IMG/VR virus record: IMGVR_UViG_2585427750_000023
Location: 1-22,590 of that record
Strand: one strand, 5' to 3'
DNA: 22,590 bases
DNA from: a virus
Lineage: Duplodnaviria; Heunggongvirae; Uroviricota; Caudoviricetes
Shown here: positions 1,009 through 7,689 of the stretch, piece after piece
Numbering within the stretch: the first letter of the stretch is position 1
How the letters are laid out: each line of letters begins with the position of its first letter
Made by a program: the position numbers and the translations under genes
Notes under the pieces: model-generated
What the model was told of the DNA's origin: nothing
Seen by the model: only the letters and a program-made list of their open reading frames with translations
Database searches by the model: none

Positions 1009-1083
1009 GTCCTCTTAGTTAAATGGATATAACGAGCCCCTCCTAAGGGCTAATTGCAGGTTCGATTCCTGCAGGGGACACCA
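1009..1083 (+). tRNA. argW: tRNA-Arg (anticodon CCU), integration target of the prophage
   Basis: 75-nt cloverleaf read by hand: acceptor stem GTCCTCT/AGGGGAC (one G-U), anticodon stem AGCCC/GGGCT with loop CTCCTAA (anticodon CCT), T-arm GCAGG-TTCGATT-CCTGC, discriminator A plus encoded CCA; candidate -10 TATACT at 992..997. Confidence 0.93.
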
Positions 1084-1244: not shown

Positions 1245-2402
1245 ATGCTCACCGTTAAGCAGATTGAAGCAGCAAAGCCGAAAGAAAAACCATACCGCCT
1301 ACTCGATGGTAATGGCCTGTACCTTTATGTCCCTGTGTCAGGGAAAAAGGTATGGCAGCTTCGCTACAAGATTGACGGTAAGGAGAAAATCCTGACCGTA
1401 GGAAAATATCCGCTAATGACTTTGCAGGAGGCAAGGGATAAAGCATGGACTGCGAGGAAAGACATCTCGGTTGGCATCGATCCGGTAAAAGCGAAAAAGG
1501 CTTCGTCTAACAACAATTCCTTTAGTGCGATTTACAAGGAATGGTACGAGCACAAGAAGCAAGTCTGGTCAGTAGGCTATGCAACTGAACTTGCAAAAAT
1601 GTTTGATGACGACATTTTACCTATCATCGGCGGCCTTGAAATTCAGGATATTGAGCCGATGCAACTGCTGGAAGTAATCCGCAGATTTGAAGATCGCGGC
1701 GCAATGGAGCGAGCCAACAAAGCACGCAGAAGATGCGGCGAGGTTTTCCGTTACGCTATTGTCACTGGTAGGGCTAAATATAACCCGGCACCTGACCTTG
1801 CAGACGCCATGAAAGGATACCGCAAGAAGAACTTCCCGTTTCTTCCTGCAGACCAGATCCCGGCATTCAACAAAGCACTGGCAACATTTTCAGGAAGCAT
1901 CGTATCGCTCATTGCGACCAAAGTTTTACGCTACACAGCCCTAAGAACGAAAGAGCTTCGTTCCATGCAATGGAAGAACGTCGATTTTGAAAACAGGATT
2001 ATCACTATCGACGCCAGTGTGATGAAGGGACGCAAAATTCATGTGGTTCCTATGTCAGACCAGGTGGTTGAACTTCTCACTACGCTAAGCTCAATCACCA
2101 AACCAGTATCAGAGTTTGTTTTTGCCGGACGCAACGATAAGAAGAAGCCAATCTGCGAGAACGCGGTGCTACTTGTGATTAAACAAATCGGCTATGAGGG
2201 TCTGGAAAGCGGTCACGGATTCAGGCATGAATTCAGCACGATTATGAACGAGCACGAATGGCCTGCTGACGCTATTGAAGTGCAACTTGCACATGCCAAC
2301 GGCGGATCTGTGCGCGGGATTTACAACCATGCTCAGTATCTAGATAAGCGCAGAGAAATGATGCAGTGGTGGGCGGAATGGCTTGATGGGAAGGTGGAGT
2401 GA
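1245..2402 (+). CDS. intS: Prophage tyrosine integrase (P4/CPS-53 IntS-like, N-terminal DUF4102-type arm-binding domain)
   Basis: 385-aa ORF from ATG 1245 (MLTVKQIEAAKPKEKPYRLLDG...), recognised as IntS-type integrase; directly downstream of argW in the same orientation. The ORF-track start at 1209 is a GTG extension and is not preferred. Confidence 0.88.
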   Translation: MLTVKQIEAAKPKEKPYRLLDGNGLYLYVPVSGKKVWQLRYKIDGKEKILTVGKYPLMTLQEARDKAWTARKDISVGIDPVKAKKASSNNNSFSAIYKEWYEHKKQVWSVGYATELAKMFDDDILPIIGGLEIQDIEPMQLLEVIRRFEDRGAMERANKARRRCGEVFRYAIVTGRAKYNPAPDLADAMKGYRKKNFPFLPADQIPAFNKALATFSGSIVSLIATKVLRYTALRTKELRSMQWKNVDFENRIITIDASVMKGRKIHVVPMSDQVVELLTTLSSITKPVSEFVFAGRNDKKKPICENAVLLVIKQIGYEGLESGHGFRHEFSTIMNEHEWPADAIEVQLAHANGGSVRGIYNHAQYLDKRREMMQWWAEWLDGKVE

Positions 2403-2581
2403 TCCACCTTAACTACTATCTAAGAGCACAAAGCCTTGCAATCCAGTGCAAAGCTTTGTGTGTCTCAGTTTTGTCTGCCATCACATGGAGATAATTAACC
2501 TATAACGCACATAGATGGTTGATGTTAATAAAAGCGCTGATCATCTCCTTAAGAGTATTTTAAGAGCATTTGAGTTATTAG

Positions 2582-2609
2582 CATGGAGGCGTATTGCCTC
2601 CATGTTTTT
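2582..2609 (+). terminator. Intrinsic terminator in the int-tailspike spacer (stem CATGGAGGC / GCCTCCATG, loop GTATT, then TTTTT on + strand)
   Basis: Perfect 9-bp inverted repeat 2582..2590 / 2596..2604 followed by T5 at 2605..2609; A-run on the other side, so it may act weakly in the tailspike direction too. Confidence 0.6.
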
Positions 2610-2610
2610 A

Positions 2611-4848
2611 CTACCATGTCGCATCTATGTAGAACGTTGGAGATGTAGTGGTGGACCCTTCAATCGATATTTGTCCTGTTGAAGCATTAATGGTGGCCAT
2701 TGCCATGCCAAATGAAACGCCATCAGCAGTGAACGGTACAGGGACATTTTTGGTTACTTTTGGTCTGCACCACCTCGGAAGCGTTAGAACAGTATTGCCA
2801 TTCGCAAATGAAGTGGCTGCCAGTTCAATATTAATTGAATTGGCAGTTAAACTTGACGGTGCCTGTACTGTTACGTTTGTTCCAGCCCACCATTGAACAG
2901 CTGCTCTTGGCGTGTAATCAACACGCGACCACCAGTCGATAATGGCAGAGCAGATAATTTCCGCATACAGACGATACCCTAACTGGCTTTGGTGAATGTC
3001 ATCACGCAGAAGTGGGTCGTATTGCGTGTTGAAATACTCTGGATATGGGGCCGGGAGCTGGTGAGTTGTTGTTACACAAATGACGTTATTGCCATATTTC
3101 ATCATCTGGCGTTTACCAGCTTCTCGCAACTCTGCGACACCGTCGTAGTTAGAAGATGGCTGGCCAGCCCCTCCAATAAATGACTGGCTATACCACATCC
3201 ACGGCTCAACCCAAACAGGGATACGACCAAGGCCATTGCAATATAAGACAAACTCATCTATCAATGACGCCATATAATCGCCGTTTTGGTTTGCCTGCCC
3301 TTCGTTAGTTCCGGCAACCATAATAACGATGTAAGCATCACCCGGCCCCTGAGCCTTCAGGAGATCTAACTGTTGCCTCATTGTCTGTCCGGCAACTGCC
3401 TTGTTTACAATGCTATGTGAACGGTGGCCGTTCGCTCCATCCATTAATTGCGGAATGTACGAGCTGAACGCGGAAATGAAATCCTCAGCTGTACTATCAC
3501 CGTGGATAAGGATATTAAGTGGAGGCTTACCGTGCACGCCATTATCAGAGGTGTAGCTGCATAATCCAGTTACACGCGCAGCACCTCCAGATGCCGTGGT
3601 CAGTGCAACAAACCCAACTTCGTATACATCCCCTACATCAGCAGTATCAAAGGGCAAACGTATCCCAACGCCATTCATCGTTATCTGCGCCCAGTTTTTA
3701 CCTTGCAGTGATACGCCAACGGTTGCTTTGCCCGGGGCGTACGACAGTAAACCTCCTGGCAGCGGGAATGGAGTTCCTTCTGCTACTGGACCACCAATTG
3801 GTTTCTGTCTATAAGACCACTGTGTAGCACCTGGTGCCCCATAGAACATCATCCAACCACCAGAGCATCGCAGAACAATCCCAACTTCTGAGGCGGCCTG
3901 AGATTCCATACGAATATGTGCAGAAATATGCTCTCCAATATCTATTGGTGCGAACAGGCCTGTTGTACGGTCAGTAGTTAAGGGGAAGATAGCTGCGCTA
4001 TCTGAGGATATGGTGACTTCACCTTCATAGAAGAACGTGTCACCATTTATGGAATAAACTTTACAATCTGACCATTCCACTCGCTTCATGCGAATAGGGT
4101 TTCGGTTGAGGATGGCCTGCTTAGCCAGATAATCCACTTCTCCACCGGTTGCTTTAAAGTTCAGGTGCGTAAATTCAAACGTACCCTCCCCCTCGTACTG
4201 CAACGATTTAAACAGTGAGTACAGATCACTGTCGAATCTCAGGGTGACATTTTTATCAATGATTACTTTACTGTTCGCAAGGAAAGAAGCGTTAGCAGCT
4301 GTAGACGGTACGGTGTACACCATCTGATTTTTTGAATGATTAGAGAAGTAAACATACCCGTAGGTCGCAACACTATCGCGCCACGCCTGGACTACGTTAG
4401 AATTATCATAACTTGGAATTTTTGTGATCGACTGCAAAACAAGATCTTCCTGTGAGATAGCTCCGTTTACCAGATTAACACCTCCTTGAGATGCAAGATC
4501 TTGCCTGAGTTGGTCAGGGTCATACTTCAGCACATTCGAAAAATAGAACTGCTGCGCACCATACGCATCATAAACAGCCATAGAATGGCCTTGCACGGTT
4601 ACGAATTTGGCAATCTGTCCGTTATATACCGGATATCCAGCAGCGTTAATGATGATTGGTTGCGAAACAGGAACGTGAGAACCATCTTCGTTCTCTACAT
4701 AAACCTGAATCTGGTTTTCAGTATTTACCGGGTCAGTGTCAATTTTACCGATATAAATTTTGCCATTGGCTACGGCTTTAAAAGAACGCGCCATAGTGAA
4801 GAGTTGCGAAGGCATCGATACGATCACATTGGCTGTAATGTCTGTCAT
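2611..4848 (-). CDS. Tailspike protein: P22-family head-binding N-terminal domain fused to a divergent receptor-binding region containing an SGNH/GDSL-hydrolase (esterase) motif set
   Basis: 745 aa; N-terminus [11 protein letters not shown]...[20 protein letters not shown]...[13 protein letters not shown] matches the conserved P22 gp9 head-binding domain; further downstream [11 protein letters not shown] (aa 447-455), GTNE (513-516) and DDIH (616-619) match SGNH blocks I, III and V; RBS GGAG 8 nt upstream of ATG. Confidence 0.85.
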
Positions 4849-5895: not shown

Positions 5896-6093
5896 TTCTG
5901 CTCTATCAGTTATATCTTTCCCTTCATATACTTCACCTATATTGCTAATGCTGGCAGAACATCCAAGATGCTTGTATCTTATGATGTCCAACACGCAGTC
6001 ACTACACAGCATCCGACCTGTTTCTTTAGAGTAAATGTATGTTTGATCAGCGTCTGATTCGCTAATGCCGCAGAAACAACATTCTTTACTCAT
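5890..6093 (-). CDS. Hypothetical small zinc-ribbon-like protein (two CxxC pairs) encoded between arc and ant
   Basis: 67-aa [12 protein letters not shown]...RMLCSDCV with Cys pairs about 21 residues apart; SD GAGGGG 8 nt upstream; start ATG overlaps arc stop in an ATGA. Confidence 0.6.
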
Positions 6094-6230
6094 ACCGTTA
6101 TCCCCTCTCTCTTCAGGCTGTCCATCACCCGTTTAATTACTTCTGCACTAAATGAGCGACACTCCTCCTTTGCTTTTTCTTCAAGAATTTTTTCTAGCTT
6201 CTCTGGCATACGCAGTGTTTTAACCTTCAT
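6090..6230 (-). CDS. arc: Arc-like ribbon-helix-helix transcriptional repressor (below the ORF-track size cutoff)
   Basis: Hand-translated 46-aa [49 protein letters not shown], resembling P22 Arc (..FNLRWPREV..NGRSVNSEIYQRVMESFKKEG..); SD GGAGG 5 nt upstream of ATG at 6230. Confidence 0.75.
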   Translation of the reverse strand: MKVKTLRMPEKLEKILEEKAKEECRSFSAEVIKRVMDSLKREGITV

Positions 6231-6586: not shown

Positions 6587-6865
6587 ATGACAGATACCAA
6601 AGTGAACTTCAGAGAAACCATCTTCAAGGACTCAAGTGATGCTGTAAATGAGTATGCTGATGGATTTGCTTACTCGTCTTTTGGGGATGTCGGAGCAAGA
6701 TTTGGTTCAATAGCATTTTTTAAGCATGTTTCAGACTGGGTTAATAATGAGGAGATTCAGCCAGTTAGATACCAAATTGCCAACATTCGCATGAGTGAAA
6801 ATCAACTTCTTGAACTGGCTAAGTATATAGTTTCTCAACACGAAGAATCAAAAAAATTAAGCTGA
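6587..6865 (+). CDS. Hypothetical protein, first gene downstream of mnt (start 2 nt after mnt stop)
   Basis: 92-aa ORF with AAGGA upstream inside the mnt 3' end; no recognisable motif. Confidence 0.55.
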   Translation: MTDTKVNFRETIFKDSSDAVNEYADGFAYSSFGDVGARFGSIAFFKHVSDWVNNEEIQPVRYQIANIRMSENQLLELAKYIVSQHEESKKLS

Positions 6866-6872
6866 CAGAGCC

Positions 6873-7433
6873 ATGATTTCTTTCCCTGCCGTAAATGCTG
6901 ATCATGCAGCGGAGAAAAAGAGAACTCTTGGTCGTATGGGGTCGACAGGTGGCATAGGAGAAAAGTCCAATGCTTCGCCTCCAGTTACCAAGAATGATAT
7001 AACCAAAAACAATAATATCGCTTATCTTGGAAAACAATACACTGAGGAGCATGCTATGGGCAGCCCATCAAGAGAAGAGATTGACGCGAAGCTTGGTCAA
7101 AACAAAGCAGAAATTGAGTTAATATCTGCTAACATGCGCGCTGAAATTTCAGCTTTCAGAGAATTCCAATCTAAGCAATTTACAGCTATGAATCAGTCCC
7201 TTAATGAAATTAAGGGACAGATATTCGCTAGCAATGGCGAAGTTGCAGGGCTCAAAGGTCAAATTGATGGCATTAAAACATCCATGACCGCGACCCAATG
7301 GCTCGTTGGTGCGGTTCTCGCTATGCTTGCGGTAATCATAACGCTTCCGCAGATTCAATCTTACTTCAAGGTTTCTGAGCCGACTGCGAAGGAAGCCGCT
7401 AGTGAAACCCATGATACCAAAATAAAGCAGTGA
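6873..7433 (+). CDS. Hypothetical coiled-coil protein with a single C-terminal transmembrane anchor; alternative start at 7056 (125 aa) with SD GAGGAG
   Basis: Heptad-like region EIDAKLGQNKAEIELISANMRAEISAFREFQ..., then hydrophobic helix WLVGAVLAMLAVIITLPQI; the 6873 start has a weak RBS, the internal ATG at 7056 has GAGGAG 6 nt upstream. Confidence 0.5.
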   Translation: MISFPAVNADHAAEKKRTLGRMGSTGGIGEKSNASPPVTKNDITKNNNIAYLGKQYTEEHAMGSPSREEIDAKLGQNKAEIELISANMRAEISAFREFQSKQFTAMNQSLNEIKGQIFASNGEVAGLKGQIDGIKTSMTATQWLVGAVLAMLAVIITLPQIQSYFKVSEPTAKEAASETHDTKIKQ

Positions 7434-7461
7434 TCTTACCAATAAAACCTGGGAGGACAAC

Positions 7462-7689
7462 ATGAAGCAATGGCTCATCATAATTGCTGTTTTTTTGCTC
7501 ATTTACACTGTTTTCCCAACATTAAAAGCACCAATGCAAATAATTTCACTAGCAATAATTGCGATTGGTGCTTTCATTGCTGTAGCCGTACTTGTGTTTA
7601 AGGTTTTAAAGTTTTTAGTTTGGCTATCAAAAGATGATGGATGCAAAGTTCATCAAGAAAAAGAAGGCAAAATAACCAAAGTTGACTAA
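7462..7689 (+). CDS. Hypothetical small membrane protein (two predicted TM helices)
   Basis: 75-aa ORF with strong RBS GGGAGG 6 nt upstream; two hydrophobic segments (about aa 5-22 and 26-52); stop overlaps the convergent gp16 stop. Confidence 0.6.
   Translation: MKQWLIIIAVFLLIYTVFPTLKAPMQIISLAIIAIGAFIAVAVLVFKVLKFLVWLSKDDGCKVHQEKEGKITKVD

Follow-up and report, generated by a model that had tools for sequence, protein, structure and literature searches.

A 208-bp int-tailspike gap in a P22-like prophage of Escherichia coli as the probable scar of a lost acetyltransferase-type cassette

The spacer between the integrase gene (int) and the tailspike gene of a P22-like (Lederbergvirus-type) prophage of E. 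coli is probably the downstream flank of int joined to the decayed 3′ end and the terminator of a lost acetyltransferase-type cassette. The analysed stretch of DNA, called the window in the following, comprises 22,590 nucleotides (IMG/VR record IMGVR_UViG_2585427750_000023). An earlier note on this DNA had described the spacer as an empty cargo slot. No gene is present here, but the slot is not clean: positions 2518-2610 can be read as a cassette remnant followed by a terminator. The note had proposed to look for a deletion scar at this junction, and such a scar was found by comparing 2518-2610 with the cassette type of prophage XJ55. The feature is a decayed moron slot, which reflects ordinary phage mosaicism and adds a new example to a well-known kind of mosaic junction. 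The scar itself was previously unnoted.

The features of the locus are as follows.

1-933: yfdC of E. coli, at the start of the window
1009..1083, plus strand: tRNA-Arg(CCT) gene argW, detected by ARAGORN; its 3′ end carries the prophage attL core
1245..2402, plus strand: IntS-type tyrosine integrase, 385 aa from the ATG at 1245, transcribed away from attL
2403..2506, plus strand: standard 3′ flank of the integrase module, non-coding, assigned by DNA similarity
2427..2460, plus strand: hairpin 1, assigned by its fold and as homologue of an HK620 terminator
2507..2517, no strand: joint between integrase flank and putative cassette remnant, given by the ends of homology
2518..2581, plus strand: putative decayed 3′ remnant of an SGNH/GDSL gene, by collinear alignment to L026 5382-5317
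2582..2609, plus strand: predicted rho-independent terminator (hairpin 2 and five U), by fold and homology
2611..4848, minus strand: tailspike, 745 aa, stop codon at 2611-2613, assigned by Pfam, phrog_17606 and AlphaFold

The int reading frame is open from a GTG at 1209 and has its stop at 2402. Its product matches the Pfam families Phage_integrase (1.6e-39), Phage_int_M and Arm-DNA-bind_3, its DNA is 96-97% identical to int of HK620, Sf6 and CUS-3, and the same span is annotated as intS in PEC301. In phiv205-1, attL is annotated at the equivalent of 1069-1085, and in the CUS-3 record 176 nt separate the attL core from int. Phages of this group have attP upstream of int, as seen in the records of HK620, Sf6 and Kapi1 and as stated in the Kapi1 paper (10.1101/2021.04.09.439263). 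Therefore, int is the first gene after attL in the prophage and faces the end of the late operon. Behind the tailspike, the prophage continues with the ant/arc/mnt immunity-I region, followed by ejection proteins, tail accessory factors, coat, scaffold, portal and terminase. The best coverage of the window by any complete E. coli genome was 75%.

The int and tailspike genes are convergent, and the 208-bp spacer (2403-2610) has a GC content of 38% compared with 46-48% in the flanking genes. ORF, Pfam and PHROG checks agree with the earlier description of a gap without an ORF. No ORF of at least 60 aa lies within it and none is credible, including any small functional ORF of the kind that the note had named as a counterargument: the gap ORFs of 20-55 aa have neither a Shine-Dalgarno sequence nor a Pfam or PHROG match. 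A promoter scan found no promoter-like site in the gap, which likewise contains no intact cargo gene with its own promoter. Searching 2250-2750 against Rfam with E up to 10 returned only sub-threshold noise, nothing near the threshold of any family.

By position, the gap lies between the 3′ end of an IntS-type int beside argW and the 3′ end of a convergent tailspike gene. The note took this position for a conversion-gene slot, naming Sf6 and K-12 CPS-53, and the relatives bear this out: eight of them carry cargo at the homologous position, where surface-polysaccharide modification genes such as Sf6 oac and yfdGHI of K-12 CPS-53 are found. The record annotations give the following contents.

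Sf6, between int and tailspike: oac, with its own promoter and terminator
HK620, between int and tailspike: O-antigen modification protein
CUS-3, between int and tailspike: phase-variable neuO
HF4s, between int and tailspike: gtrABC
K-12 CPS-53, directly after intS: yfdG/yfdH/yfdI (gtr-type)
611R6, between int and tailspike: OafA/YrhL-type acetylase
683R2, between int and tailspike: SGNH esterase-like gene
E. coli CAU16175, between int and tailspike: 374-aa membrane protein

Slots without a gene also occur in Kapi1 (171 bp) and Dewey (239 bp), so that the lack of a gene is in itself nothing exceptional. The match pattern of Dewey recurs in Louie and CurroJimenez. For Kapi1, a small ORF between tailspike and int was reported to match an acyltransferase (10.1101/2021.04.09.439263), which would be a parallel case of decay.

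The left half of the gap (2403-2506) is the ordinary flank of an IntS integrase with a putative terminator hairpin for the int transcript. Positions 2403-2483, including hairpin 1, match approximately 2400 of 5426 complete E. coli genomes, among them K-12, downstream of intS. Similarity to the individual relatives ends at 2395 in Sf6, at 2403 in Kapi1, at 2438 within hairpin 1 in CUS-3 and at 2483 in K-12 and HK620, and the CAU16175 type stays similar to the window up to 2506. These differing end points indicate that the slot is bounded by variable recombination joints and not by a fixed insertion site. K-12 CPS-53 (L007 6180-6255) and HK620 (L005 38240-38297) share a stretch with ATCGATCGATT after hairpin 1. 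It lies upstream of their O-antigen modification genes, is absent from the window, and may be a regulatory region of these cargo operons.

Hairpin 1 has 14-bp arms with one mismatch and folds with -20.8 kcal/mol on the plus strand (z -3.5) and -26.1 kcal/mol on the minus strand (z -5.6). Its homologue in HK620 is annotated as 'terminator for prophage excision transcript' (38289..23). The tail is U-rich and imperfect (GUGUCUCAGUUUUGUCU), with no clean U-run. Among its variants, two stem positions show C>T changes that preserve pairing, as U-G, on the plus strand but not on the minus strand; few variants are informative for covariation, and the HK620 copy has two mismatches. Support for the structure comes from the fold energy and wide conservation, and we regard hairpin 1 as a putative terminator of the int transcript.

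The origin of the right half was recognized by comparison with XJ55 (E. coli, NZ_CP098229; also L025 and L026), a siphovirus-type prophage with a receptor-binding part 81% identical to that of the window tailspike. The XJ55 tailspike gene is followed, in convergent orientation, by a 227-aa SGNH/GDSL gene with a signal peptide and a 354-aa Acyl_transf_3 (AT3) gene, and this pair looks like a split version of OafA-type acetyltransferases. Positions 2518-2610 are collinear with the sequence right after the tailspike stop in L026 and XJ55, where the terminator comes first and then the end of the SGNH gene. Within this stretch, 2518-2581 corresponds to the last ~21 codons of the SGNH gene (ending in KVELNKSMAPFPYGTFYRTFK and the stop), with ~73% identity over ~64 nt and three frame-breaking indels. 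The L026 counterpart is the coding 3′ end of the 227-aa Lipase_GDSL_2 protein. Without the hairpin, the alignment score is 33 compared with 20.8 +/- 2.2 for shuffled sequences (maximum 30 among 200; 5.5 sd above), and with the hairpin it is 52 compared with 21.5 +/- 2.5. Moreover, the stretch sits exactly where collinearity predicts.

All that remains in frame is VDVNKS/VELNKS, and no catalytic motif is left. The GDS, Gly, Asn and DxxH blocks of an SGNH domain are missing; the DNA corresponds to ~21 codons after block V and is frameshifted. Judged from the alignment, 2518-2581 is a probable remnant of an AT3 + SGNH cassette and not a member of this class. The homology is confined to the DNA level; the SGNH C-terminus, used as a protein query against the gap, gave nothing. 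Only one cassette type (XJ55/L025/L026) matches the gap DNA, and the flanks of the AT3-SGNH genes in L030 and L035, which have closer tailspikes, share no DNA with the gap.

Immediately behind this stretch, hairpin 2 (2582-2604) forms nine perfect pairs with a loop of 5 (-20.7 kcal/mol, z -5.0) and is followed by TTTTTA. The plus strand thus has a stem-loop with U-tract, whereas its minus-strand counterpart folds with -16.7 kcal/mol and has no U-tract. The minus-strand sequences after the two hairpins are CUAAUAAC (behind hairpin 2) and CUCUUAGA, neither of which contains a U-tract, and a bidirectional terminator was rejected for this missing minus-strand tract. Fold energies and T-run agree with the two hairpins and the intrinsic terminator at 2582..2609 in the earlier note, which had left the strand unstated; it is the plus strand.

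Hairpin 2 has a homologue in L026 and XJ55, where it follows the stop codon of the SGNH gene. Comparing the two distinct sequences, the stem differs from that of L026 by two compensatory pair changes (C-G to T-A, A-T to C-G), and the tail TTTTTAC is conserved between the window and L026/XJ55. This argues that hairpin 2 is a maintained terminator of the cargo-sense transcript. An annotated terminator of oac occupies the same relative position in Sf6. The terminator assignment is corrected accordingly to the lost cargo, in int sense: 2582-2609 is predicted to be the int/cargo-sense terminator derived from the lost cassette and not that of the tailspike or the late transcript. The consensus terminator scan did not list 2582-2609, probably because a G-U/A-U extension of the stem uses two of the five T. 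The region agrees with the scan's stated rules if the 9-bp stem is used, and such scans can miss terminators whose tail pairs with upstream A/G. If both hairpins act as predicted, int-sense transcription would meet two plus-strand terminators in a row and end before it could proceed in antisense through the tailspike gene. Today, the region would most likely be only a buffer between convergent transcription units.

Positions 2403-2517 have no match in the XJ55/L026 locus. Homology to the int flank extends no further than 2506, and that to the XJ55 cassette begins at 2518, possibly at ~2500 in the MAFFT alignment. With int flank, a joint of ~11 nt, the 3′ stump of the cassette and the terminator, the whole gap is accounted for. 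A 9-nt exact inverted repeat ACATAGATG (2509-2517 and 2622-2630) coincides with the joint. It is part of a 25-nt, 76% inverted repeat and links the joint with the last tailspike codons; it might be microhomology of a rearrangement, or chance (about 0.1 expected).

Other sources of the gap sequence were searched for by tblastn and tblastx. Sf6 Oac, the HK620 O-modification protein and K-12 GtrA/B/S gave nothing beyond the shared int flank, and the same holds for the 374-aa protein of CAU16175, the CUS-3 neuO region and the small ORFs of Kapi1 and Dewey. At blastn sensitivity, 2470-2625 has no relatives among GenBank phages.

We propose that the right half (2518-2610) would have come with the receptor-binding module of the tailspike, as the stump of a convergent SGNH gene with its terminator from an Acyl_transf_3 + SGNH (split OafA-like) cassette. 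One recombination or deletion with its joint at ~2507-2517 would have eliminated the cassette promoter together with the AT3 gene and all but the end of the SGNH gene. The substrate of the lost cassette was presumably the O-antigen. The same structure would arise from a later in-place deletion or from a truncated import, with a single illegitimate crossover inside the SGNH gene as the module was acquired. No P22-like prophage with an intact XJ55-type cassette beside this tailspike was found, and both routes therefore fit the data. Either of them would make the right half the relic of a cassette that had formerly bordered the tailspike module.

The distribution of the gap allele adds to this picture. 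Every occurrence of the right half, in 3 complete genomes and 5 IMG/VR contigs, accompanies this tailspike. All nine copies of the tailspike allele with a readable flank share the same short gap, which is invariant from ~2492 to 2610. The block of tailspike, gap and hairpin 1 occurs in prophages at argW and, in two genomes, next to ybhB (bio-ybhB region). The latter copies belong to P22-like prophages of GPEC1240 (L009 5917-6211), where an annotated 84-bp 3′ fragment of intS is still attached, and A30 (L008 about 6001-6189). An identical gap is present in a metagenomic 47-kb phage contig (L016, ~7230-7460) with a tailspike that is only 84% identical; there is no integrase gene at this place, and again a short intS 3′ fragment is attached. 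From these contexts it follows that int end, gap and tailspike moved together into phages with another integration module. The junction was formed once and then passed around as a block, and the loss event would have happened once, before the tailspike spread to argW and ybhB prophages. The identity of the gap across copies is a sign of recent spread and no proof of selection.

The tailspike itself combines the P22 head-binding domain (aa 1-113; Head_binding PF09008, E 6e-66) with a receptor-binding part made of a jelly-roll and an SGNH esterase domain (GDS452, G487, N515, D616, H619), and phrog_17606 matches the full-length protein. The motifs GDS452, G487, GTN515 and D616xxH619 recur unchanged in all of 34 homologues with identities down to 38% and provide the Ser-Asp-His triad together with the oxyanion Gly and Asn of SGNH enzymes. 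The Pfam GDSL_2 match is below the cutoff (19.7 vs 32.9 bits), and homologues are named SGNH/GDSL hydrolase. In the AlphaFold model (pLDDT 87.3), the best Foldseek matches are CE2 carbohydrate esterases, an acetyl-xylan esterase and sialate O-acetylesterases. The esterase-type tailspike of the earlier note is consistent with the invariant SGNH residues and with the modelled similarity to CE2/sialate O-acetylesterases, and an SGNH esterase fold of deacetylase type is reasonably supported by the model.

According to the protein database, the receptor-binding part (aa 117-745) is a mobile module that occurs in combination with four kinds of adaptor at the N-terminus, namely P22 Head_binding (PF09008), TSP1/Gp66 N-terminal (PF18668), T7-type fibre (PF03906) and tail-collar (PF12571). 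Its hosts are E. coli, Enterobacter, Shewanella and others. No relative was found in the GTDB species representatives, and GenBank phages gave only matches of 23-29% identity and one 59-residue match (95%) at the extreme C-terminus.

Three cassettes were found beside related tailspikes. An intact AT3-SGNH gene of 660 aa lies 35 nt downstream of a P22-type tailspike with 95% identity (L035 6274-8256), an Enterobacter relative with a 91% identical tailspike has a 595-aa AT3-SGNH gene (L030 5806-7593), and the split AT3 + SGNH cassette accompanies the 81% identical receptor-binding module (L026 5320-7639). All three are convergent to the tailspike and located 30-35 nt from its stop codon, in three phage backbones, and the acetyltransferases are mutually 22-31% identical in amino acids. 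Four other relatives of the tailspike have no acetyltransferase neighbour. The XJ55-type cassette is rare (1/5426 complete genomes). Its SGNH protein had no match in IMG/VR and, in GenBank phages, matched only 683R2 (30%), the slot of which has no DNA in common with the gap apart from the int flank. An IS5-family element (ISKpn26-like; L027 10669-11649) lies between the AT3 and SGNH genes in XJ55 and L025. The AT3 gene of L025 is truncated to 172 aa, that of XJ55 has the full 354 aa, and the L026 cassette is uninterrupted; the insertion shows cargo decay at the same kind of site.

It is a rather unlikely idea that esterase tailspikes and convergent AT3(+SGNH) acetyltransferases recur as 'erase and write' pairs. 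The adjacency could equally reflect a general habit of AT3 morons to settle beside any tailspike, as in Sf6 and 611R6. If selection maintained the pairing, the prophage would place an acetyl group on the host polysaccharide, and this group would govern whether its own acetyl-removing spike gains access. The effect would be superinfection exclusion or receptor provision, and the window lineage would represent a natural loss-of-writer variant.

Three other readings of the gap were weighed against that of a joined integrase flank and cassette stump. We consider it improbable that the slot is pristine and was never occupied, with the 208 bp representing natural 3′ ends and the similarity to XJ55 arising by chance or from a shared 3′ UTR of the tailspike. 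The short gap in all nine readable copies of the tailspike allele, the short gaps of other Lederbergviruses and the lack of a protein-level signal in the remnant would fit such a history. However, in L026/XJ55 the aligned stretch is part of a coding sequence that is annotated and supported by Pfam, the alignment is contiguous with a homologous terminator and the tailspike end, and the 5.5 sd above shuffles were obtained with no positional weighting. The U-tract of the terminator also faces the wrong way for a terminator belonging to the tailspike. This last point likewise concerns the reading of the hairpins as mainly terminators of the late, tailspike-sense operon, i.e. as a bidirectional block and not a relic, to which we assign a low probability. 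It is true that both stems fold on the minus strand (-26.1 and -16.7 kcal/mol), that HK620 has a late-transcription terminator annotated after the tailspike gene and that a stop to Q-modified late transcription before it becomes antisense to int would be useful. But the minus strand lacks a U-tract behind either stem, whereas the tailspike's own terminators in the flanks of L018 and L024 have U-tracts facing the tailspike sense, and the coding-sequence homology of 2518-2581 would be left unexplained.

A small functional product is highly improbable, be it the 55-aa ORF at 2515-2682, the 31-aa ORF at 2399-2494 or a small RNA ending at 2582-2609. The ORFs exist, and the longer one is intact in every copy of the gap, but this conservation is uninformative because the copies are nearly identical. 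Neither ORF has a Shine-Dalgarno sequence at its start or a Pfam/PHROG match. The 55-aa ORF was rejected as a real gene: its frame is a chimera that strings together the remnant, the stem of the terminator and tailspike codons read in antisense, and in L026 a stop codon closes the homologous frame ahead of the hairpin. Annotators have called small ORFs in the gaps of Kapi1 and Dewey; these are, however, unrelated to the gap sequence. A small RNA could end at the terminator, which has ~100 nt of AT-rich sequence in front of it, but the gap has neither a promoter-like site nor an Rfam family. The joined flank and cassette stump remains the preferred reading.

At this point we want to return to the suggestion that the phage reads rather than writes an acetyl modification. 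No writer was detected in the slot or in the visible 22.6 kb: none of the large ORFs of the window gave a match to the Acyl_transf_3, Gtr or GT2 families, and no AT3 domain was found. The statement is, however, lineage-specific, as the relatives with 95%, 91% and 81% identity keep an AT3(+SGNH) gene, and 'does not write' holds for the slot and the visible 22.6 kb only, which cover one half of the prophage. Three plus-strand ORFs of 92, 186 and 75 aa (phrog_4231, phrog_5820 and phrog_7294, families with no annotated function) lie at 6587-7689 between mnt and the gp16-like ejection gene. They are the sole remaining candidates in the window for a function expressed by the lysogen. The equivalent position carries hkcB/hkcC in HK620 and sieA in P22.

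For the int-tailspike locus, no conversion function would be written from the slot, and lysogens are predicted not to be seroconverted from it. The ancestors of the window lineage would have been phages in which an acetyl-removing tailspike was combined with a gene for acetyl addition. The window prophage is a natural comparison partner for the 95% identical lineage with the intact AT3-SGNH gene, by which the relation of writing and erasing can be tested. The wider reach of these findings is restricted to the recurrent adjacency of eraser and writer; otherwise they describe routine moron decay in P22-like phages.

Compared with known systems, Sf6 oac is similar in integrase family, argW attachment and orientation, and in having a cargo-sense terminator between the stops of cargo and tailspike. 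Its cargo is an Acyl_transf_3-type O-acetyltransferase, the family of the first gene of the presumed lost cassette. In Sf6, however, the gene is intact, whereas the window keeps ~64 nt of what appears to be the partner SGNH gene and the terminator, and the Sf6 slot and the gap have no DNA in common except for the int 3′ end. Kapi1, Dewey, Louie and CurroJimenez are argW/IntS-type phages that likewise have a slot with no conversion gene, but their gap sequences are unrelated to that of the window beyond the int end. Salmonella OafA and OafB are fused AT3-SGNH acetyltransferases of the O-antigen. The same two-domain logic, a membrane AT3 domain with a periplasmic SGNH domain, is seen in the OafA/OafB-like fused versions convergent to the 95% and 91% identical tailspikes; in contrast, nothing functional of this kind is left in the window.

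SGNH receptor-binding proteins are common in temperate phages, including Klebsiella phages (PMC13123978). The window tailspike resembles these proteins and the esterase tailspike gp63.1 of phage G7C (Prokhorov 2017, as cited in PMC13123978) in carrying an SGNH esterase on a tail spike that is predicted to deacetylate, not cut, the polysaccharide. It differs from gp63.1 in having no detectable sequence relation outside the adaptor domains: PDB sequence and profile searches match 4qnl only in the N-terminal adaptor region. The XJ55-type locus has another backbone (TipJ, tape-measure genes and a TSP1/Gp66-type adaptor) and another chromosomal site. Its cassette is complete, though IS5-interrupted in XJ55, and its DNA is collinear with the window over the 3′ end of the tailspike gene, the terminator and the last SGNH codons.
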